NCBI GenBank assembly: GCA_038326325.1
Contig: JBBQJW010000017.1
Span: forward strand, 2,009-66,008
DNA: 64,000 nucleotides
DNA from: Chitinophagales bacterium
GTDB taxonomy: Bacteria; Bacteroidota; Bacteroidia; Chitinophagales; UBA10324
Reading direction: 5' to 3'
Below the pieces are notes generated by a model that worked only from the letters and a program-made list of their open reading frames with translations, did no database searches and was not told the origin of the DNA. This document shows positions 24,118 through 58,767 of this stretch, in pieces. The stretch's first letter is position 1, and each line of letters begins with the position of its first letter. The translations under genes were made by a program, and so were the position numbers.

Positions 24118-25938
24118 TCAAAACTTCACCACTTTCTCAACCCTAACACATCCATCATTCATTCTCAACTTCACAAAATAAACTCCGGCAGCAAGTGATT
24201 TAATATTTACTTGTGTTGTTGGTCTTTGAACTTTAAACTTTAAACATTGAACTCCTAAAGCATTTGTGATTTCTATTTCCTTAGGAGCAACTCCATTTAG
24301 CACTTCAATAGTTAATTCATCACTCGCAGGATTGGGGTAAACTTTAATTCCATTCACAATTGACAATTCACCATTCACTCCTGTCACATCCACAAACATG
24401 CAAGCCGATTGTTCATTGCAGCTATAGGCATCTGTTGCAATTATAGAGTAGTTTCCGGTTATTGTTACAATAAAAATTTGATTAGTTGCGCCGCTTATAT
24501 TTAAGCTGCTATCACAATTGAACCATTGATATGTTAAACCAACTCCGCTCACACTTGAAAAGAGTGTATCAGAAGTTGCACTTATTGATACTGTAACAGT
24601 ATCAACCGTAAGCAGCGTTGTAACTATGCTGTCGCACCCCGCATCATTCATTAATGTGTCAATATAAGTTCCACTTGTATAATACACACTGCTACCTATG
24701 TACAAAGTATCTCCTGCACATATTTTTTGTGAAGATGATGAAGTTGTATTTGTACAACTCAAAGTATCGCAAGGGCTTCCTATCAATGGCCCCAAATTGT
24801 AATTAACCATGTTCGGCAACCCATATCTGCATCTCATTCCATTTAAATAAAAATTATATGGTTGAACATTACATTCTATTCCATTACTGTCTGGATTATT
24901 AATTACTGTCAAGTACATGTTACAAGAATCATATGATGCGCAATCTGTAACAATATAAATTTTATTATTTGGCGCAAGTAGATGTTGTCCTATTAAATCA
25001 TCTGGATGATTGTTTGAATAATTATTCCATAATAAAGTTTTAGTCGATTGAATATTTGGAGAGTCGAGATTAAATTGATATAATTTATGTTCAGTTGAAA
25101 AGTAAAATTTTGAACCGTCTGATGAAAAGGAGCATCCATAACAGTTTGGGTCATTAGCCAAAAATATATAATTACTTATATCCCCTGAACATCTATCAAA
25201 ATTAAAAACTCCAACTTTGTGATTTAGATAGTCAACCAATCCTAATCTTTCACCAGATTGTGAAAATTTTAATTGACCTACTTGTATATTACTAAGCACT
25301 GGTCCAATACCTTGTATTACTACATTACTAATACCTGCTGATGTTACACGATATTTGTAAAAATTTTTACTGTCGTTTTTATGAACTACAACCCACCAAT
25401 CTTCCCCATTTCCGTGTTTTACTGCTGTAATTTTTTCAGAAACGATTGTAGAATCAATGAGTATATTTTTAATAACCAAAGCACCAGAATCATTATTCAT
25501 TGTTCTATCTATTATCCCATAATAGAATCCTGAATGTAATAAGTTGTTTTGAATATTGTTTGTGTAGAAGAGATAATACTTATTAGTATCGTTAGGAAAA
25601 GGGATAAATAACAGCCCCTGTGTATTTGATCTATTACTTGCAATACTATCGCCGTCTAATATTATTTTCCCATAAGAATTATAAACGGCAGAAATCTGTG
25701 GTGGATTTCCAAAACTATCTGACCCGCTCACATAAAATAATAAATTACCATTTCTTGTCGAAATTGAAGCATAGTTTTCATTACCATGACGAACTCCTAC
25801 TTGATTTGAAACTTGAGGGTTTCCAATGTTGATGAAATCAATTTTTACACTGTCATCAAAAACCCATACTCTGTCCTCCTTCTGAGCTAGACTCAGAAGA
25901 GGACAAAGTATGAAAAGCAATTTCAAAAAGACTTTCAT
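24118..25938 (-). CDS. secreted protein with a T9SS type A C-terminal sorting domain
   Basis: Has a signal peptide. The C-terminus VYPNPASDELTIEV...AGVYFVKLRMNDG...KVVKF is a T9SS CTD. Confidence 0.8.
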   Translation of the reverse strand: MKVFLKLLFILCPLLSLAQKEDRVWVFDDSVKIDFINIGNPQVSNQVGVRHGNENYASISTRNGNLLFYVSGSDSFGNPPQISAVYNSYGKIILDGDSIASNRSNTQGLLFIPFPNDTNKYYLFYTNNIQNNLLHSGFYYGIIDRTMNNDSGALVIKNILIDSTIVSEKITAVKHGNGEDWWVVVHKNDSKNFYKYRVTSAGISNVVIQGIGPVLSNIQVGQLKFSQSGERLGLVDYLNHKVGVFNFDRCSGDISNYIFLANDPNCYGCSFSSDGSKFYFSTEHKLYQFNLDSPNIQSTKTLLWNNYSNNHPDDLIGQHLLAPNNKIYIVTDCASYDSCNMYLTVINNPDSNGIECNVQPYNFYLNGMRCRYGLPNMVNYNLGPLIGSPCDTLSCTNTTSSSSQKICAGDTLYIGSSVYYTSGTYIDTLMNDAGCDSIVTTLLTVDTVTVSISATSDTLFSSVSGVGLTYQWFNCDSSLNISGATNQIFIVTITGNYSIIATDAYSCNEQSACMFVDVTGVNGELSIVNGIKVYPNPASDELTIEVLNGVAPKEIEITNALGVQCLKFKVQRPTTQVNIKSLAAGVYFVKLRMNDGCVRVEKVVKF

Positions 25939-26558: not shown

Positions 26559-27467
26559 TTAAACCTTCTCCATCACCACGCTAACCTCCACACTGCCGCC
26601 AAGTGGTATTTTTACATTAGGCACTTTAGCGGGTTTAAAATCAGGATGAGTAAATACAAACGAATAAACACCACCCTTAAATTTACTGATTTGATAAACA
26701 CCTGTTACATCTGTCGTGGTCTTCAAATCAGTATTTGTTCCAATCATTTCCACCTGCATTTTAAAGATGCCGTCTCCTGTAACACTATCCGTTGCTTTTC
26801 CTTTTACCGTGGTATGTGTTTGTCCTGAATCTATCACCTCCTTAGCTGCAAAATAAGTATCATAAAAAACAGGTTCACTGCTGAGCAGTGTTTCAATAAT
26901 AGGAGTCATTTCATTTTTTATTAAATCCATTCCTTGTTTATTCAGCACCGGAATAAGATTCGTTTGCGCCATCCGGTCAGCAACCGCCTCCCTCGGTTGA
27001 TCTACCGAACCTTTATAATTAGTTATCGCTGTTTGAAAAGTAGTAAGCACCGGAGCGGTTATTCCATAATCAGCAAGCAAAAGAATCAATCCGTTGGCGC
27101 GGTCGTGCATAAACTGGGCAGTCTGTGGCAGCAAACCATCATCTAATCTTTTCAACTTCGATTTAGCAATACTTACCTCGTCAAAAAGAACAGCATCACC
27201 AATCACATGAGCGTATGCTTTCATGGCCGATGCAACCGAAAAAGTTTGGTTCACCAATCCGTCATGCAATTGTTGTTTGTTAACCGTTACACCCTTTATG
27301 TTTTTTCGCTGCGCAAGGTCTGCACTTTCTATGGCGGCGACCACTGCGAGCAATGCTGTTTGCGCAACTCCGAGTGCAGGTCGCAGAGCTACGACAGCGG
27401 CGTTCGAAGCCAGAACTAAAAGTACTGTTCCGAACATGTTCAACCGGTTTTCAAAATACTGTTTCAT
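26559..27467 (-). CDS. hypothetical protein: helical N-terminal domain + C-terminal CarboxypepD_reg-like beta-sandwich (paralog of 55219-56166)
   Basis: The C-terminus is GKATDSVTGDGIFKMQVEMIG...TTDVTGVYQISKFKGGVYSFVFTHPDFKP. The start is set at MKQYFENR (27467). Confidence 0.6.
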   Translation of the reverse strand: MKQYFENRLNMFGTVLLVLASNAAVVALRPALGVAQTALLAVVAAIESADLAQRKNIKGVTVNKQQLHDGLVNQTFSVASAMKAYAHVIGDAVLFDEVSIAKSKLKRLDDGLLPQTAQFMHDRANGLILLLADYGITAPVLTTFQTAITNYKGSVDQPREAVADRMAQTNLIPVLNKQGMDLIKNEMTPIIETLLSSEPVFYDTYFAAKEVIDSGQTHTTVKGKATDSVTGDGIFKMQVEMIGTNTDLKTTTDVTGVYQISKFKGGVYSFVFTHPDFKPAKVPNVKIPLGGSVEVSVVMEKV

Positions 27468-27598: not shown

Positions 27599-28081
27599 CT
27601 AATCTTCTTCTTTTTTTTCTGTTGATTTATGATTGTGATAGATGTGTAGATAAACTCTCACCACTTGCTCGTATGTTTCTGAAACAGGTAAATATTTTCT
27701 GTTTTCCAAATGAACTCCATCCGGTTCCATATCATACTGAATCATAAATTCCGGGTTGAACATAAACGAATTATGATTTCGTATTAATCCCATCTGTGTT
27801 AAATCATTTTCAAGTTCACCAATGGTTTCATTGCGGCGATACTTCACATTTTTATGAAGTGTTACAGCATAAATGTTTGTTCCGTGCCCCTCGCTTTCAG
27901 CATAAATAATATCTTTTCCCTTTATAAAAACATAACCGCCGTCCGGGTGAATCACTGAAAATTTTTGAAAGCTGTTCTGGTGAGATTGCTTTTCAAATTG
28001 TTGCCTCAATAAAAGAGTTGCCTTCATAACCGAAGCGCGTTTAATTTGCTTCACTAAAGCAGCCCAGAACGAAAGAGGCAT
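27599..28081 (-). CDS. stand-alone LytTR DNA-binding domain protein (no receiver domain)
   Basis: IIYAESEGHGTNIYAV...ETIGELENDL...LIRNHNSFMFNPEFMIQYD...LENRKYLPVSETY follows the LytTR pattern. An alternative start exists at 28027. Confidence 0.7.
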   Translation of the reverse strand: MPLSFWAALVKQIKRASVMKATLLLRQQFEKQSHQNSFQKFSVIHPDGGYVFIKGKDIIYAESEGHGTNIYAVTLHKNVKYRRNETIGELENDLTQMGLIRNHNSFMFNPEFMIQYDMEPDGVHLENRKYLPVSETYEQVVRVYLHIYHNHKSTEKKEED

Positions 28082-28225: not shown

Positions 28226-28560
28226 CAATAGCGACGGAAACCATCGCGAAAGCAAAGTAATCTGCCGAAACAACAAGGTAAGCGAAAACAATAGCTTCGG
28301 AAACAAAAGCAATGCTGTTGTCACTTGAAACAATGACGGGTAAGCGGAAGCAATAGCAGGTTAAACAAAAACAATAGCAAGGTAACTGACTGCAACAACG
28401 AGGTAAACAAAAACAATTGCATCGGAAACCATCTCGAAAGCAAAGTCAATCACAGAAACAGCGAGGTAAATAAAAACAATAGTGTCAGAAACAATCGCGA
28501 AGGCAATGTAAACTGGAGAAATGGAAGAGTAATTGAAATCAACAAAATAGGAATCACAAA
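28226..28560 (-). repeat. array of about 15 degenerate tandem repeats with ~21-bp period
   Basis: CAAT(A/G)GC anchors sit at 28289, 28310, 28331, 28351, 28372, 28393 and 28414. The minus-strand consensus is yTTTTGTTTACCtnGCTATTG. A higher-order duplication links 28235-28305 to 28423-28493. Confidence 0.8.
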
Positions 28561-28651
28561 TTCTATCGTGGTTTCTGCCCTCAAAAAAAATCATGAAACA
28601 ATATTTTCATTATCAATACTCCTTAATTACATTTGCGACGGATTAGTGATG

Positions 28652-30427: not shown

Positions 30428-33400
30428 ATGTCAGAAGTAACAACAGGGGGAAAAAGAATCGCGGCGGTTGCCAAGGAGCTCAATGTGGGTTTGACCCATC
30501 TCATTGAGCATCTTAACAAAAGTGGTTTCAGTGTCGAGAATAAACCGACTACGAAAATCACCGATGCGATGCACGAGGTTTTACTTCGTGAATTTCAAAG
30601 TGATCTTTCAAACAAGCAGAAGGCTGATAAAATCAGCCTGGGAATAAAAGCTGCTGCTCCGGCAAAAGCCGAAGAGAAGGAAGAGCGCGCAACAAAAGTT
30701 TCAAAAGAAAAAGAAGAGCAATCAGAAGAACTGCTGATTAAGAATTCAAAAACAGCAACCAAAAAAGTTGAGGAAAAGAAAGTTGAAGAAACCGTTACAG
30801 CAAAGAAACCCGAAGAAAAACCTGCTGAGAAAGTTGTAGAAAAAGCGACGAAAAAAATTGAAGAGAAGCCGATAGAAAAAATTTCTGGCGAGAAGAAAGA
30901 AGAACAGAAGCCGGAAGAAAAAATAATCAAGCGCGGCAAAGCAGATAAAGTTGAGGGGCCGAAAATTATTGGCAAAATAGAATTGCCGGTTGAACCACCT
31001 GCTGACGAGCGTGGAAAGAAAAAAGCTCCACCAAAAGTTGCAGCAAAAAAAGGAAAGAAAAAAGAAGAGGACACTGTTACACCTGTTGTTGAAGAGGTAA
31101 AACCTATTGAAGTTTCTGTAGCAGAAATCCCAAAGAAGGAACCACCCGCAGAACCAACAGAAACGGAAGCAACGGATACTGTTACACCTGAAGATCCAAA
31201 CGCCCCAACGCGCAAAACACAATTTTCTGTTTTGTCGGGTCCGGTGTTGCTCGGAAAAATTGATTTAGGTTCAGTAAAAGATAAAAAGCCCGACTACTCG
31301 GACATTATTAAGGGCGATAGAGAAAAACGCAAGCGCAAAAGAATTTATAGTTCTGAGCAGGGGCCAATCGGCAAGCAACCTCAGTCATCAGGCGGAGGTG
31401 GTGCAACTGTTACACCTCCAGCAAAGCCAGGTGAAAGAAGACCATCTGGTCCGCCATCACAACAACCTCCTCGTCGAGACAACAGAACCGGCGACAATAA
31501 CAGAGGAAGAAGCGACCGTAACAGAAATACAAAAGTTGACAACACTCCGCAGGAAGTTTCTCAAAAAGAAATTCAGGATAAAATCAAGGCAACACTTTCT
31601 CGCCTTGGACAGCATGGGGTGAAAGGTGGCAAGGGTGCGAAAACAAAATTGCGCAAACTGAAACGCGATGTTGCAGCTGAAGAAATGAATGTAGAAGGCG
31701 GCGCTAAAAAAATTCAACTCACGGAATTTATTTCTGTTTCTGAGTTGGCAAGTTTGCTGAGCGTACCTGTAACAGATGTAATTAAGAATTGCATGAATCT
31801 CGGAATCTTTGTTTCCATCAATCAACGATTGGATGCGGAGATTATAGAATTAGTAACGCATGAATTTGGTTTCGAAGCCGAGTTCATTGGTGTTGAAGCG
31901 CAGGAAGAACAGGAGGAATTTGTTGATGAGCCGGAAGATTTAAAATCGCGCCCTCCAATCGTTACTATCATGGGACATGTGGATCATGGTAAAACATCGT
32001 TGCTTGATTATATCAGAAGCGCGAATGTGGTGGCTGGTGAAAAAGGGGGAATCACTCAGCACATTGGTGCTTATGAAGTGGAACTTCCGAACAAAAGAAA
32101 AATTACTTTTCTTGATACACCGGGTCACGAAGCATTTACCGCGATGCGCGCCCGTGGAGCAAAAATTACAGACATTGTTGTGATTGTTATTGCTGCCGAT
32201 GATAATGTGATGCCTCAAACAAAAGAAGCCATTAGTCACGCACAGGCAGCGGGTGTTCCTATGATTTTTGCATTTAATAAAATGGATAAACCAGGAGCTG
32301 ATGCTGAAAAAGTGCGAAGCGTATTAGCAAACATGAATATTCTTGTTGAGGATTGGGGAGGAAAATTTCAGTCGCAGGAAATTTCAGCAAAGGCAGGAAC
32401 AAATGTTGATTTGTTATTAGAAAAAATATTAGTTGAAGCTGATGTGTTGGAGTTAACAGCGAATCCCGATAAACCCGCAATCGGTTCTGTGATTGAAGCA
32501 TCGCTTGATAAAGGAAAAGGATATGTGTCAACTGTGTTGGTTCAGGAAGGAACTTTGAATCACGGTGATATAATTGTTGCTGGCGCAAACATGGGCAGAG
32601 TTAAAGCCATGTACGACGAGCGCGGAAATAAAATTAAATCTGCACCTCCGGCTACACCTGTGTTGGTGTTAGGATTAGATGGTGCACCGCAGGCAGGAGA
32701 AAAAGTTCGTGCGTTTGAAGATGAGCAGGAAGCAAAAGCGGTAGCAACAAAACGCTCGCAAATTTTACGCGAGCAGGGAATTCGTACCAAGAAACATATT
32801 ACGCTCGATGAAATCGGTCGTCGTTTGGCGCTGGGTAATTTCAAAGAACTGAATGTGATTATCAAAGCCGACTTTGATGGTTCAGTTGAAGCGCTTTCTG
32901 ATTCGTTGCAAAAACTTTCAGTGGCCGAGGTGCATGTGAATGTTGTTTACAAAGCTGTCGGACAAATTACAGAATCAGATGTATTGCTCGCTTCCGCATC
33001 CGATGCAATCATTGTCGGTTTCCAGGTGCGACCATCATTGCAGGCGCGCAAACTCGCTGAGAAAGAAAATATTGAAATTAGATTATACTCTATCATCTAC
33101 GATGCGATTGAAGAAATCAAGGGTGCAATGGAAGGAATGTTGGAACCAAAACTCGAAGAGCGCGCAGTGTGTAACATTGAAGTTCGCGATGTATTCAAGA
33201 TTCCAAAAATTGGCTCTGTTGCAGGTTGCTATGTAACCGATGGAAAAATTACCCGTCACACAAAAATTCATATTGTGCGCGATGGTATTGTGATTTATAC
33301 AGGAGAATTAGCTTCATTGAAACGATTCAAAGATGATGTGAAAGATGTAGCAACCGGATTCGAGTGCGGTATCTCAATCAAAAACTACAACGATATTAAA

Positions 33401-33454
33401 GTCGGTGATGTGATTGAAGGATATGAAGAAGTGGAAGTGAAGCGAACACTGTAA
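30428..33454 (+). CDS. infB: translation initiation factor IF-2
   Basis: GTPase motifs [17 protein letters not shown] and NKMD, with a K/E/P-rich N-terminal region. Confidence 0.95.
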
Positions 33455-53651: not shown

Positions 53652-54368
53652 ATGCAGGCGAAAACCGAAGGCATAGTTTTTCGAACAACTAAATATTCCG
53701 AGACGAGCGTGATCGCTTCGGTTTATACTGAACAATTCGGATTGCAGAGTTATATCATTAACGGAGTAAGGGGAAAAGCGAAATCGAATTCAAAATCTTC
53801 GTCGCTGCAATTGCTTTCCATTTTGAATATGGAGGTTTATAAAAAGGAAAATAAAAACCTGAACCGGATAAAAAGTTTTGAATCGGCGGTCGTGTTTAAG
53901 GAGATTCCGTTTGATGTGGTGAAAAGTTCACTCACTTTATTTATCGCGGAAGTTTTGAACCGAACCGTGGTGGAGGAAGAGTGTAACAGTCCGCTTTATC
54001 ATTTCGTGCGCAACTCGGTACTGGAATTGGACGGCGCGAAAAACGCTTCTGATTTTCATTTGCATTTTCTCGCCGCGTTAACTCAGCATCTTGGATTTTC
54101 TCCTCACGGAAAATATGCCGATGAAACGCCTGAGTTTAATTTGATGGATGGAAGTTTCGTGAATAATTCTTCCGTCTTTAATCCGCATTATTTATCAGGA
54201 GAAAACGCCCAACGATTTTCTGAATTATTTTTTAATCCCACTTCATTAAACCTGAATAAAAAAAACAGAAAAGAATTACTGCTGTCGTTGCTTGAATATT
54301 ACCGGCTGCATGTTTCCAATTTCAATATCATGAAATCACTTGAGGTGATTGAACAGGTGTTTGCGTGA
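53652..54368 (+). CDS. recO: DNA repair protein RecO
   Basis: Typical RecO N-terminal OB region, GIVFRTTKYSETSVIASVYTEQFGLQSY. The start is moved to 53652. Confidence 0.8.
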   Translation: MQAKTEGIVFRTTKYSETSVIASVYTEQFGLQSYIINGVRGKAKSNSKSSSLQLLSILNMEVYKKENKNLNRIKSFESAVVFKEIPFDVVKSSLTLFIAEVLNRTVVEEECNSPLYHFVRNSVLELDGAKNASDFHLHFLAALTQHLGFSPHGKYADETPEFNLMDGSFVNNSSVFNPHYLSGENAQRFSELFFNPTSLNLNKKNRKELLLSLLEYYRLHVSNFNIMKSLEVIEQVFA

Positions 54369-54380
54369 GCGGATGCTTGT

Positions 54381-54752
54381 GCGCATGGTTTTGAGGGGGA
54401 CTGCGTATATCAATTTACTACACTGCGTATGTGAATTTACTGCGTTGCGTATTTTGATTTACGGCACTGCGTATTTGTATTTACTTCGGTGTGTATGCTC
54501 ATTAACCCCATTGCGTATATCTATTAACGCTATTGTGTAAAGCTCTTACTGTAACAGCGTATTATCATTTACTGCATGGCGTATTGTCGTTAATTGCATG
54601 GCGTATTGTTATTTACTATTGTGCGTATGATTCTTGACCGTATTGCGCATGTGATTGAGTGATTGTTTCTATTCAAATTAGTGCATAAGGTGTATACTAA
54701 TGTTTTCAGGGGCATATTTTCCTGACTGAATGTGTATTGTACGAATTCGTAC
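54381..54752 (+). repeat. array of about 16 degenerate tandem repeats with a strict 22-bp period
   Basis: G(C/T)G(T/C)AT anchors fall every 22 bp from 54381 to 54645 (54381, 54403, 54425, and so on). They continue roughly in phase at 54690, 54712 and 54732. The consensus is GCGTATnnnnATTTACTnnnnT. Confidence 0.85.
54739..54752. promoter_or_regulatory. perfect 14-bp palindrome GTACGAATTCGTAC, candidate operator
   Basis: It lies between the end of the repeat array and the start of the HTH gene. Confidence 0.35.
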
Positions 54753-54798
54753 AAACTGCATTTTTTATCCCGACATTTTTGTTTTTCGAAATTCAGAA

Positions 54799-55080
54799 AT
54801 GAGCGCTGACCACAACTTCTTAGTATCAATGCAAAAGCGGCTGATTTTCCTTCGTGAAAAAAAATTTATAACCCCAAGTGAATTTGGAAATGTGGCGAAT
54901 GTGAATGAGAGAAGAAATGAAATATATGCGCAAGACCTTAGGGCAACTTCTATCGGAAGAATTGTGATCTCACTTCAAATTGATTTTAATGTTAGTGAAT
55001 TAATAACTAAGGAAATGCTGATGAAATATGCCGATGAACTTGATAAGGAAGAACACGAAAGAGAGAGTAGAGGGGAATAA
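54799..55080 (+). CDS. small XRE-like helix-turn-helix protein
   Basis: KRLIFLREKKFITPSEFGNVANVNERRNEIYAQDLRATSIGRIVISLQIDFNVSELI follows XRE HTH spacing. The start is set at 54799 because the 54730 ATG lies inside the repeat array. Confidence 0.5.
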   Translation: MSADHNFLVSMQKRLIFLREKKFITPSEFGNVANVNERRNEIYAQDLRATSIGRIVISLQIDFNVSELITKEMLMKYADELDKEEHERESRGE

Positions 55081-55218
55081 GGTTCGCCCGGAGTTTTACA
55101 AGCATGATAAATGACGGAGAGAAAGACTAACAAAGTAAAAACGGAGGGTTTCGGTTGTGTAACCCCAAAAGGACAAACGGATTAATTTTTTTTTCATAAA
55201 CCATAAAACAAAAACAAC

Positions 55219-56166
55219 ATGGCACTTTTAATCAGACCTGTTTACCGATGCACTCAACTTGAGCTGTATTCGACATTGAAAACCATTTGGGACAATTATG
55301 ATGACCATCAGGCGCAACTTGTTACTTACAAGAGTAAGTATGATGCTCCGCTGAGTGTTACACACAAGGGTGAAATTGCCGCTGCGAAAGCTTTGCCTGA
55401 CGAAGAAGCGCGAAATGCTGAATCGCAGAATCTTCGGATTGATGTAACAGCGCTTGGTCAAAAATGCACCCGCAACTGGCAACTATTGAAGGGATATATT
55501 GTGGAAGCTTATCCAGGGGCTAATCAGAAAGTACAGTTGGATGCAGCGGGGGCGGTTTACTATGTACCGGCATCGCACAGCAACTGGGAGTTTGTGGCGG
55601 GCATGAATTCTTCTGCAAACAATTTTATCGTTGCAAACGGTGCAGCATTATTAGCGGATGGTTTTATGCCCGCAGGATTTAAACTTCAATACAAAACTGA
55701 CAGCGATGCTTTTGATGTTAAGTATGATGAGTTTAAACATGCGCAACAATCGAGTGAGGGAACTGACGAGAAAATAAAAGCGAACAATAAAATTTATGAG
55801 GACAGCATGAAGATGTGCGCTGATGCAACAATGTTTTTTGTAACGGATGATTCGATAGTGAAGAAGTTTACTTTCACTACAGTGTTACAGATTGTTAGCC
55901 CGCCGGGGAGTGCAAGTTTGAAAATACAAGCCATTAACTTAGGCACTAATGAAATTATTGTTGGAGCGAAGGTGGTGATTCAGAAGGAAGGCAATGCTGC
56001 ATTGAACGGAATTACTGATGACAGTGGTGAAGTTGTTTTTCCGGGGATTGACCCGGGTGCTTATGATGTGACTATTGCCGCCGTTGGATATACTGCGATG
56101 AATTTCAGTAAGGATGTGAATACAGGTGTGAGTGCGCGAAAGGATGTGTTTATGACGGCGGTTTAG
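55219..56166 (+). CDS. hypothetical protein: helical N-terminal domain + C-terminal CarboxypepD_reg-like beta-sandwich (paralog of 26559-27467)
   Basis: The C-terminus is GAKVVIQKEGNAALNGITDDSGEVVFPGIDPGAYDVTIAAVGYTAMNF. It shares an LLAD.G...A....F.T segment with the other copy. Confidence 0.6.
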   Translation: MALLIRPVYRCTQLELYSTLKTIWDNYDDHQAQLVTYKSKYDAPLSVTHKGEIAAAKALPDEEARNAESQNLRIDVTALGQKCTRNWQLLKGYIVEAYPGANQKVQLDAAGAVYYVPASHSNWEFVAGMNSSANNFIVANGAALLADGFMPAGFKLQYKTDSDAFDVKYDEFKHAQQSSEGTDEKIKANNKIYEDSMKMCADATMFFVTDDSIVKKFTFTTVLQIVSPPGSASLKIQAINLGTNEIIVGAKVVIQKEGNAALNGITDDSGEVVFPGIDPGAYDVTIAAVGYTAMNFSKDVNTGVSARKDVFMTAV

Positions 56167-56483: not shown

Positions 56484-56882
56484 ATGACAAATACGATAAC
56501 AAGACCAGCAGACAAACAAATCTTTGAAGGGATAATTGCTGACTATTATTTAGATGATGGTATTTTAGTTTCACTTTCAAAAAATCCCAAACGGACAGTT
56601 GAAAATATTACAAGCAATGTTGCTTTAGTAAAAAGTATTACCGACAACAAACCTGTTCCGCTTTTGATTTATCTTTCTGACTCTCCTATTCCAGACAAAG
56701 TGACACGAAAATTTGCGACTGAACAGTTACCAATAATTTATTCTGCAATGGCAATGGTTTCCAAACCTGGACTTTCAAAATTCATTATGAATATTTTGTT
56801 CAGTTTAAAGACACCACCGATACCAATGAAAAGTTTTACTGACGATAAAGCTGCAAAAGAATGGTTAGGACAATATTTATAA
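56484..56882 (+). CDS. SpoIIAA-like / STAS-domain-like hypothetical protein (cargo 1)
   Basis: 132 aa, ending ...MKSFTDDKAAKEWLGQYL, which is typical of STAS-like DUFs. Tentative. Confidence 0.45.
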   Translation: MTNTITRPADKQIFEGIIADYYLDDGILVSLSKNPKRTVENITSNVALVKSITDNKPVPLLIYLSDSPIPDKVTRKFATEQLPIIYSAMAMVSKPGLSKFIMNILFSLKTPPIPMKSFTDDKAAKEWLGQYL

Positions 56883-57115: not shown

Positions 57116-57187
57116 TAATGCTATGGCGACAGTGCTAACTTGAAACTTTCTGCAAGAAACGAACAGACAAAACCTTTAAACAGAACA

Positions 57188-57625
57188 ATGTTTGACGAAC
57201 TAAACAAATACGAACAACACGACCATTTCTTTTTAAAACCGCAAGACAGTTTGAGAGAAGTTTGTAACGCACCGACAAATAAAAGTGGTGTTTACATAGT
57301 TTACGCTTTGAAGAACGGAAAGGTAGAACTCATTTATATCGGCTGTTCAGGAAAAATACAAGCAGACGGTTCTATGTTCGTCAGAAAAGCGGGACTTGGC
57401 GGTATTAAAGACAGAATTGTAAACGGACACCAATTTGGAAAAATACCGAGACGAAAATCTTGGATAGCACAAATTGAAAAAGAAAATATTGAGGCGTTAG
57501 ACATTTATTGGTATTCAACACACAATCAAAAATATTCCGACTGTCCACGAATTTTGGAAAACAAATTATTACAGAAACATTTAGACATTTACGGACGACT
57601 ACCAAAGTGGAACAAGGAGTTATAA
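57188..57625 (+). CDS. GIY-YIG nuclease domain protein (cargo 2a)
   Basis: GVYIVYALKNGKVELIYIGCSG (GIY-N10-YIG), with a downstream Arg (IKDRIVNGH), Glu (RILENKL) and WN. The start is set at the ATG at 57188, because the track TTG start lies in the conserved leader. Confidence 0.65.
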   Translation: MFDELNKYEQHDHFFLKPQDSLREVCNAPTNKSGVYIVYALKNGKVELIYIGCSGKIQADGSMFVRKAGLGGIKDRIVNGHQFGKIPRRKSWIAQIEKENIEALDIYWYSTHNQKYSDCPRILENKLLQKHLDIYGRLPKWNKEL

Positions 57626-57630
57626 GAAAT

Positions 57631-58767
57631 ATGAAAGCAGCTTTTCACTACGCAGTTAAAGTAAAACTCATTCGCTACGAAACGAAAGAGGATATTAATT
57701 TCATTGACTTCAATAAAGTTTTTGAAAATGAAAATCCCATACTTGCAAGACAAGAGGCGTTCAAGGAATATGAGGAGTGGATAAAAGATTTATATACAGG
57801 AATTGGAACGACAGCAAAATATTCGACAGACAAGCAAGCAAGAATTGATTTACAAAAATTTACAACTCCATCTGGTAAACACAATGTTCAGATAGATGAA
57901 AATGAAATTGATTTTGGCAACTCTTTTGGTTACGGTATCGGAGTTTGTTTCATTATTGACAAGCCTTTTCATCAAAGTGGGGTAAGTGAAGACAGGTATG
58001 ATAAAGCAGGTGATGAACATTTAATTCACGGTATCGGGACAACAGAAAATTACAATAACCCTTTAGAAATAAGTGATGCACTCCTTAGCGAAATTCTTTA
58101 CTACGAACATTTCAAATACGATACTGGAAATTTTGAAAGACGAACCAACTTTTACGATTGGGACATTGACGATGTAGGAGAAATACATTTTTTAGAAACG
58201 CCTTTTGATTGGACAGGTTTAGATGTTAAACCAGAGAGCGAAACAAAAGAAGTAGTAGAACAAAATCCAAGACAACGCATTGAAGAAATGATTGCAAACG
58301 GAGAAGGCAATCAAGTTGAATTTAAACCAGCACTTCTTTACAACTTCAAAACTGACAAAGCAGGAATAAGTATAAAAGCAAAAATTGCAACAGCAATTTG
58401 TGCTTTTCTAAATGCTAACGGTGGGTTTTTATTTATCGGGTTAGACGATGACGGAAGACCACAAGGTTTAGAGAGGGATTTTAGTTTAGCAAACGATAAA
58501 AAGCCAAGAGATTATTTTCACGGAGAGTTTGACCAAATGATTGAGCATTTTCTTTCATTCGCAATTAAAGCAAATGTTATTGGAGAGTTTTACCGATTAG
58601 AAGGGAAAGATATTTTTATTGTTGCAGTTGAGCCAAGTAAAAACAGAGCAATATTTCTCAAAGGACAAAACGGAAAAGAATTTTGGGTTCGTGGCAACCA
58701 CGGCAACAGACAACTTACAGACATGGAAGAATTAGCGAACTATTGCATTGACAGATGGGGAAACTAA
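57631..58767 (+). CDS. protein with unknown N-terminal domain and C-terminal AlbA_2 (Schlafen-like) domain (cargo 2b)
   Basis: EGNQVEFKPALL...IATAICAFLNANGGFLFIGLDDDGRPQGL matches the AlbA_2 signature. The ATG lies 5 nt after the GIY-YIG stop. Confidence 0.65.
   Translation: MKAAFHYAVKVKLIRYETKEDINFIDFNKVFENENPILARQEAFKEYEEWIKDLYTGIGTTAKYSTDKQARIDLQKFTTPSGKHNVQIDENEIDFGNSFGYGIGVCFIIDKPFHQSGVSEDRYDKAGDEHLIHGIGTTENYNNPLEISDALLSEILYYEHFKYDTGNFERRTNFYDWDIDDVGEIHFLETPFDWTGLDVKPESETKEVVEQNPRQRIEEMIANGEGNQVEFKPALLYNFKTDKAGISIKAKIATAICAFLNANGGFLFIGLDDDGRPQGLERDFSLANDKKPRDYFHGEFDQMIEHFLSFAIKANVIGEFYRLEGKDIFIVAVEPSKNRAIFLKGQNGKEFWVRGNHGNRQLTDMEELANYCIDRWGN

Follow-up and report, generated by a model that had tools for sequence, protein, structure and literature searches.

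A tandem array of 22-bp direct repeats (array 1) lies between recO and a small open reading frame (ORF) in a 64,000-nucleotide stretch from a Chitinophagales bacterium (contig JBBQJW010000017.1, positions 2,009 to 66,008; hereafter, the window). The locus raises the question of what such an array belongs to and what it does. We find that array 1 is one half of a conserved module. Among homologue loci of Bacteroidota, drawn from genomes and metagenomes, about 36 were non-redundant and could be evaluated, and about 30 of these have an array beside a gene for a protein of about 315 amino acids (aa). Our tentative reading is that the arrays are helically phased, bipartite direct-repeat sites (10-15 of them) for a sequence-specific DNA-binding protein, and might form a multi-site docking platform upstream of a promoter. 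The novelty lies in the scale (5-16 units), the strict phasing, and the constant tie to one gene family. Searches of the literature turned up neither the arrays nor the partner family.

Array 1 comprises 13 strictly phased 22-bp units on the forward strand (54379 to 54666; consensus aTTGCGTATnnnnATTTACtgc). It begins shortly past the recO stop codon (54368), and the small ORF starts at 54799. A preliminary description, made from the sequence alone, had reported a hexamer recurring 13 times in a row at exact 22-bp steps, and this is what we observe: GCGTAT or a one-base variant (GCGCAT, GTGTAT, or GTGTAA) stands at 54381 + 22n for n = 0 to 12, that is, to 54645, with zero insertions or deletions and all copies at phase 0. 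The three later copies, described as roughly in phase, are also present. They form a degenerate tail (54667 to 54736, forward strand) of about three weak units slipped by 1 bp either way (GTGTAT at 54690 and GCATAT at 54712, both at phase +1; GTGTAT at 54732, at phase -1).

The 22-bp period is well beyond chance. The autocorrelation of 54381-54752 is 0.537, 0.491, 0.471, and 0.465 at lags 22, 44, 66, and 88, over a background of about 0.27, while the half-period lags 11, 33, and 55 are depleted (0.19-0.17). The lag-22 value has z = 11 against 2000 shuffles, among which the highest autocorrelation at any lag was 0.389; among 335 other natural 372-nt windows of the 64-kb sequence it was 0.42. 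Tandem Repeats Finder calls the best-preserved parts of array 1 with a period of 22/44 and 77-80% matches. Information is concentrated in two blocks of each unit, TGCGTAT and ATTTAC, which are separated by about one helical turn: when the array is laid out in 22-nt rows from 54379, ATTTAC or ATTAAC stands in the same columns, 10-11 nt beyond the hexamer. The pattern TGCGTATN4ATTTAC, with at most two mismatches, has nine matches in array 1 and two elsewhere in the 64 kb, with 2.2 expected in total. The earlier view of the units as phased sites, rather than copies from a recent duplication, is supported.

The array and the family gene are a conserved module. Homologue loci (L numbers below) came from exact-protein look-up, from species-representative genomes scanned with a 16-sequence alignment, and from a scan of metagenome contigs. 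Arrays were evaluated where genome loci had at least 700 nt of upstream DNA and metagenome loci at least 300 nt, and periods of 10-34 were tested. All such genome loci carry a tandem array 100-600 nt before the family gene except L013, where the position of the array (73-567) is taken by an IS1595-like transposase fragment, as judged by eye. A strong array is present in 23 of 31 metagenome loci, with a best period of 21 bp in 12 of them, 22 bp in 11, and no other. With redundant loci included, upstream arrays divide evenly between the two periods (18 at 21 bp and 18 at 22 bp). Arrays are also carried by L015/L016, L055, and L056. In the cultured Ginsengibacter hankyongi (GCA_008710285.1, L003), the array has about 10 units of 21 bp. 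In L027, L030, and L032, which have no upstream array, a very regular array of period 22 bp follows the family gene closely, past the terminator of that gene (L027 3432-3690, L030 3682-3945, L032 3508-3880; one clade, 11-17 near-identical units). In the 246 kb of fetched loci plus the 64-kb window (about 310 kb), we found no 21/22-bp array away from the family gene. The arrays are a simple genomic marker for the family. The weight that the preliminary description gave to a period of about two helical turns is also well placed, as all of the approximately 35 related arrays repeat at 21 or 22 bp while the unit sequence changes.

The conserved partner of the arrays had not been noticed before. 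The preliminary description had named the products of the small helix-turn-helix (HTH) and LytTR genes as candidate binders; the conserved partner is neither of these genes but the gene of about 315 aa (55219-56166 and 26559-27467). XRE-like ORFs occur only in the window, at L004/L005, and at L001 (whose contig is that of L006). A LytTR gene occurs only at array 2, with none near any other locus. No plausible ORF separates the array from the family gene at the remaining loci.

The partner gene of array 1 (55219-56166, forward strand) encodes a 315-aa protein with a helical N-domain, a VSPPGSASLK linker, and a transthyretin/CarboxypepD_reg-like C-domain. Its AlphaFold model (pLDDT 91) comprises an 11-helix N-domain (residues 1-228) and a transthyretin-like sandwich. 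Compared with PDB, the full-length model was matched in its C-terminal sandwich alone (carboxypeptidase-D and CnaB-type domains), and the N-domain model found nothing significant in PDB or BFVD (best E 0.2-0.3). The protein has no signal peptide and is acidic (pI 5.1, which is also the family median). Neither of the two large partner proteins of the window has a match in NCBIfam, PHROGs, or PADLOC. A word-indexed search returned 66 relatives of the 315-aa protein, all from Bacteroidota metagenome-assembled genomes (MAGs) or Ginsengibacter and none with names. A profile search of 1.84 billion representatives returned 865 relatives at E<1e-30, and the best 150 profile matches include more than 100 full-length clusters of about 315 aa. 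The family comprises hundreds of 50%-identity clusters in Bacteroidota, often with two copies per genome. The next same-strand gene past the family gene often codes for a secreted protein. A sorting domain of the type IX secretion system (T9SS) is present in six such downstream genes (24118-25938 in the window, two genes at L002, and one each at L009, L013, and L044), and other downstream neighbours encode an M43/PKD protein (L026) or carry signal peptides (L018, L019, and L023).

The window holds a second module of the same layout: an array, a small DNA-binding-type gene, and a protein of about 300-315 aa with a C-terminal CarboxypepD_reg domain. The homologous array reported earlier at 28226-28560 (array 2) is real and a true counterpart of array 1. 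It has about 15 units of 21 bp on the minus strand, with a 63-bp higher-order repeat, and its orientation to its genes is the same. The array 2 unit, read on the minus strand, is nnTGCTATTGnTTTnGnTTAC, and its ends, TGC(G)TAT...TTAC, are common to array 1. A stand-alone LytTR-domain protein of 160 aa (27599-28081, minus strand; PF04397, E 7.7e-9) is encoded between array 2 and the second partner gene (26559-27467, minus strand; 302 aa, helical N-domain plus CarboxypepD_reg). Downstream, on the same strand, is the gene for a T9SS-sorted secreted protein (24118-25938; Por_Secre_tail). The two window partner proteins cannot be aligned to each other by BLASTP and are linked by the same architecture and array only. 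Protein P0069, which is 31% identical to the second partner protein, likewise has a 21-bp array upstream (L015/L016).

Array 1 is not coding, which answers a concern of the preliminary description that the region might belong to a conserved protein-coding gene. Repeats of 22 bp cannot keep to one reading frame, and the ORFs within arrays are short, locus-specific, and without family matches. ORFs or called genes that lie wholly or mostly inside arrays (54349-54540, 54533-54637, and 28361-28594 in the window; L015 3542-3799; L055 2611-2793; L056 2511-2861) probably arise artefactually, from repeat units that by chance contain no stop codon. Gene callers put spurious ORFs inside arrays of this kind.

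The arrays change more quickly than the genes beside them. In L007 and L009, two loci of one MAG, the family genes are 87% identical, the promoter-proximal gaps 73%, and the arrays only 53%. Across loci, copy number varies from 5 to 16 units, and L017 and L018 have 7 and about 10 units, respectively, beside genes that are 95% identical. Arrays are built from units with a high-information core of 8-10 bp, a variable spacer of 3-6 bp, and a second conserved block about one turn away. The core reads TGCGTAT..ATTAC in the window, L001, and L005, TGCGAA.. in L008, and CGCATAAGAG in L002 and L003; further cores, GACCGATG, GGGAGATGAG, and GGGAGATAC, are distributed across L007, L009, L012, L017, and L033, with others elsewhere. 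The orientation of the array to the family gene is fixed within clades.

This rapid turnover, together with the differing copy number in close relatives, is what would be seen in a functionless or selfish minisatellite that arose once beside an ancestral gene and was co-inherited with it, its period kept by whole-unit unequal crossing-over. The higher-order periods of arrays (44, 63, 42, and 88 bp) and the heptads of L055, which grade into 21-bp units, agree with such an origin. Nevertheless, we think this explanation quite unlikely. Arrays persist at most of the loci, beside proteins of down to about 30% identity, despite the deletion bias of bacteria. Their period never leaves 21-22 bp, a sharply conserved core plus variable spacer is kept in each array, and the placement between terminator and promoter is constant.

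At L005, L007, L008, L011, and L012, the array starts directly past the intrinsic terminator of the upstream gene, which leaves no space for a promoter in front of the array. The Bacteroidota -7 box has the consensus TAnnTTTG. Exact copies, downstream of the arrays, lie at most 110 nt from the start codon in 10 of 28 loci (2.3 expected), and L050 is the only locus with a copy inside the array. Both observations argue against the array being transcribed and acting as RNA alongside the family protein, either as a repeat-RNA or as a long leader or antisense RNA with 10-15 protein-binding motifs.

We consider this RNA role unlikely, although a number of features would suit it. The array always adjoins the gene, on either side and in the same orientation. 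Motifs are strand-specific, with TACGAA found 34 times on the sense strand against 9 expected and its complement 9 times against 9 expected. Several arrays have a strong strand composition bias (84% purine in L012, 75% purine in L002 and L009, and 47% T in array 2). In L025 and L042, related 7- and 14-bp tracts stand past the stop codon but before the terminator and are thus transcribed, and the helical fold of the family protein is unmatched. Folding of the array RNA, however, gave no structure signal against shuffles (z = +0.41 and +0.31 on the two strands), and no Rfam family matches the array beyond a 17-bit chance match. The variable segments of only 3-6 nt, near-invariant in young arrays, cannot be guides; the family protein is acidic, with no Cas, Tas, or defence-model match; and a fixed period of 21/22 bp is not required for an RNA role. 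The comparison with CRISPR and TIGR systems runs along the same lines. These systems also couple a repeat array to a protein gene on either side, with conserved and variable unit segments, but the variable segments of the arrays are too short to be alike, and no Cas or Tas/Nop-like protein was found (Pfam, PADLOC; N-domain against PDB, best E 0.28).

The order of terminator, array, and promoter is the best anatomical fit to a nucleoprotein or enhancer-like platform, one of the roles suggested in the preliminary description. Read as such a DNA platform, array 1 would be a cis-regulatory element of about 13 (up to 16) sites between the end of recO and a promoter region that would drive the XRE-like gene and the 315-aa gene. 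Each 21/22-bp unit would dock one asymmetric protein copy via two adjacent major grooves, with one monomer per repeat, as with AraC/XylS-, LytTR-, OmpR-, or BldC-type regulators. The docked copies would all lie on one face of the helix, and a cooperative filament or wrapped complex would turn the adjacent promoter on or off. A core, a spacer, and a second block one turn away are the pattern expected of a protein that reads a pair of neighbouring major grooves. Further support comes from a period held at 21-22 bp without conservation of the sequence and from an array that is upstream of the core promoter. A decoy or titration array, also suggested earlier, is possible.

Known systems offer partial parallels to such a platform. 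LytTR and AraC/XylS direct-repeat sites are spaced 21/22 bp apart, with one monomer per repeat. The window arrays, with periods of 22 bp (array 1) and 21 bp (array 2), share this spacing, and related arrays lie upstream of -7 boxes. More generally, the operators of LytTR (AgrA/ComE/PlnC), AraC/XylS, and OmpR/PhoB regulators are like the arrays in having asymmetric direct sites, 21-22-bp spacing, one helix face, and a position upstream of the promoter, and the bipartite array units resemble the two-box sites of AraC/XylS. The direct repeats of AgrA are centred near -60 (PMC4227749). Operators of these types, however, have two repeats, occasionally three or four, rather than the 5-16 seen here, and most array loci, unlike them, have no linked regulator gene. 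BldC forms head-to-tail multimers on direct repeats that vary in number (PMC5859096). It is similar in that repeat number varies by target, binding is cooperative, filament-like, and directional, and sites are helix-phased. It differs in that its repeats are about one turn apart and number 2-4; it is also a small MerR-like actinobacterial protein, of which no homologue was identified here. Judged by sequence, the best-supported assignment is that the arrays are of the phased direct-repeat operator or upstream-activating kind, unusually large, family-specific, and conserved.

Several points weigh against a DNA platform. The downstream array of L032 lies between convergent genes with no obvious promoter, and an exact -7 box marks a candidate promoter position at only some loci, 18 of 28 having none. 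Unequal crossing-over keeps a tandem period, and conservation of the period alone is thus no proof of selection for helical phasing. Ten or more tandem sites are far above known chromosomal operators, and a simple binding-site model does not account for the strong purine/pyrimidine strand bias that several of the arrays show.

If the platform reading holds, the binder is probably encoded elsewhere in the genome, since most loci have no adjacent regulator and arrays of the same genome share a motif skeleton. For arrays 1 and 2, this skeleton is given by their common ends, and for L007/L009 it is AAAGGTT.G...GATG. The acidic family protein, and array cores that do not track its divergence, argue in the same direction. 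These data also bear on whether the family protein itself binds the array, for autoregulation or as a DNA-scaffolded multimer, with a private array for each paralogue. The family gene is the only gene always beside the array, and the cores of paralogues differ within one genome (GACCGATG in L007 against GGGAGATG in L009). A helical N-domain of no known fold makes DNA binding conceivable. However, no HTH or other DNA-binding family was detected in the protein, W1 and L001 share TGCGTAT..ATTAC at 54% protein identity while L007 and L009 differ at about 85%, and the array of L027 and L030 appears to serve the next gene. We thus regard self-binding as improbable. At L027, the array is about 170 nt upstream of the next forward-strand gene, which has a TACTTTTG box and a product with a signal peptide.

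A more speculative proposal, to which we assign a low probability, is that the array and the protein of about 315 aa constitute a self-contained and undescribed two-part system. In such a system, the helical domain would recognise its private tract, as DNA or as repeat RNA, and multimerise along it; co-divergence would prevent cross-talk between paralogues; and the system may control or accompany genes for T9SS cargo. The implications differ between readings. Bacterial promoters are normally under one to four operator sites, and this family has 5-16 strictly phased sites. As binding platforms, the arrays would exemplify in nature a highly cooperative, enhancer-like control of bacterial transcription, and would offer a way into an uncharacterised family of unmatched fold whose genes often precede those for type-9-secreted proteins. 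As a repeat RNA or a site of self-recognition, they would represent a new array-plus-protein system.

Local regulators might add to the platform at the two window loci. Array 1 is closed by a perfect palindrome, which the preliminary description had correctly noticed but had measured too short, at 14 bp. It is 18 bp long (TTGTACGAATTCGTACAA, 54737-54754), consists of two inverted TACGAA heptads, and occurs only once in the window. At the equivalent place of the orthologous locus, L005, stands another perfect 18-bp palindrome, with a different sequence. Further on, CATTTTTG (54774-54781, forward strand), read from the sequence, is one mismatch from the -7 box and stops 17 nt short of the ATG that starts the small gene. 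We infer that it is the predicted promoter box of this gene. The palindrome would then fall over the -33 region and is a probable operator.

The small ORF itself (54799-55080, forward strand) encodes 93 aa of weakly XRE/Cro-type HTH character and is confined to the closest clade of the module, with just two homologues among 5.8 billion proteins. It has zero Pfam matches, and a profile of four sequences matches mainly XRE-type PDB proteins (HipB, C-proteins, and PezA) at E 0.03-0.4. Thus, of the flanking genes named in the preliminary description, recO stands (Pfam RecO_N and RecO_C), but the HTH label of the small gene is only weakly supported. The XRE-like protein probably adds a local autoregulatory layer via the palindrome, and the LytTR protein may have a comparable part at array 2.

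The earlier suggestion of LytTR binding is likewise borne out only in part: the period of 21/22 bp and one adjacent LytTR gene, that of array 2, speak for it, but the consensus is absent and no other locus has a LytTR gene. The 9-bp LytTR consensus of Firmicutes is [TA][AC][CA]GTTN[AG][TG]. This consensus has zero matches on either strand of arrays 1 and 2.

The preliminary description also raised an iteron-type origin of an integrated element. R6K and pPS10 are examples of basic iteron replicons, and array 1 has their look: 22-bp direct repeats, then an inverted-repeat operator, then a gene. Its 13 units of 22 bp lie in the range of 17-22 bp for tandem iterons. ParR-parC and omega heptads are centromere-like repeat arrays bound by small RHH or HTH proteins, and they too stand upstream of operons, which brings a partition site of an integrated plasmid-like element into consideration.

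We consider both of these very improbable. No Rep, ParA, ParM, or integrase gene lies near either window array, and the partner genes have no PHROG or NCBIfam matches; nor were there plasmid or phage matches. A DnaA box like TTATCCACA, with at most one mismatch, is absent from 53900-55300. Core genes flank both arrays: recO and a CN-hydrolase (nitrilase) gene for array 1, and rimP, nusA, and probable infB (not Pfam-checked) for array 2. Several sampled genomes hold two modules. The partner protein is not of the winged-helix Rep type, and its fold search gave no Rep-like match.

Iterons (R6K gamma ori, pPS10, and RK2; reviewed in PMC4980987) do resemble the arrays in having tandem repeats of about 22 bp followed by an inverted repeat beside a gene, and in their fast-diverging specificity. 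The arrays differ from them in lacking a Rep gene, a DnaA box, and, though no separate scan was made for it, an AT-rich unwinding element, in their chromosomal housekeeping setting, in a copy number 2-4 times higher, and in being linked to a non-Rep protein family. ParR and omega centromeres are similar in having about ten tandem repeats upstream of an operon that are bound cooperatively into a higher-order complex, and TACGAAT heptad clusters accompany some modules. The arrays have no partition ATPase or actin-like gene, however, and their units are bipartite and of another length.

Family genes are also accompanied by clusters of heptads, nearly all of which read on the sense strand. Three to eight copies of TACGAAT/TACGAGG stand together at L002 (3612-3659 and 4989-5027), L011 (511-549 and 1744-1790), L013 (1657-1694), L042 (3016-3063), L046 (653-682), and L047 (3457-3487), and two inverted TACGAA heptads make up the window palindrome (54737-54754). 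L011 has near-identical heptad elements of about 50 nt on either side of the family gene. At L055 (2557-2766), triplets of GAGGTAC heptads (GAGGTAC GAGGTAC GAATTAC) grade into 21-bp units, GAGGTGGGAGATAACGATTAT, and on this sequence pattern the 21-bp unit may have arisen from three 7-bp repeats. L025 (3420-3800) has about 28 copies of a 14-bp repeat, GTTGATGGTTGTTA, from the stop codon of the family gene to the intrinsic terminator, which places them in the 3' untranslated region. Downstream of the family gene at L001 (5199-5549) are 73/144-bp tandem repeats (about four copies, 95% identical), each bearing two GC-rich, REP-like hairpins.

Two further candidates were tried and rejected. Intrinsic curvature of 21 arrays showed no consistent excess over same-locus background or column-shuffled arrays, and some arrays are unusually straight. 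Array 1 has an end-to-end/contour ratio of 0.957 against a background median of 0.969, and 62% of its column-shuffled versions are more curved; these values come from a dinucleotide wedge model and serve as a comparative test only. For a sigma-54 enhancer, promoter-proximal regions read by eye showed no GG-N10-GC spacing.

Several other features of the loci were observed. The next gene past the L027 array encodes a product that resembles, by eye, a peptidyl-arginine/agmatine deiminase. Contig CAZXFT010000001.1, which carries L001 and L006, is filed as Bifidobacteriaceae and bears Por_Secre_tail/T9SS-type genes and the Bacteroidota family gene; its bin is probably mislabelled or contaminated. 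In the window, a Flavo-1 RNA (RF01705; 9386-9467, forward strand) is the sole Rfam family above threshold, at full length and with 58.3 bits against a gathering score of 42. A 24/45-bp periodicity at 30650-30920 lies inside an ORF (30428-33454) that is probably infB, after rimP-nusA, and is presumably a coding repeat in the N-terminal region. Past the array 1 module, a DUF7793 (SpoIIAA/STAS-like) gene (56484-56882) begins 318 nt after the family gene and is not beside it at other loci. About 1 kb past the module, a Schlafen/AlbA_2-domain gene (57508-58767) follows an overlapping, unannotated 161-aa ORF (the pair spanning 57140-58767), and the two may form a small defence or regulatory islet.

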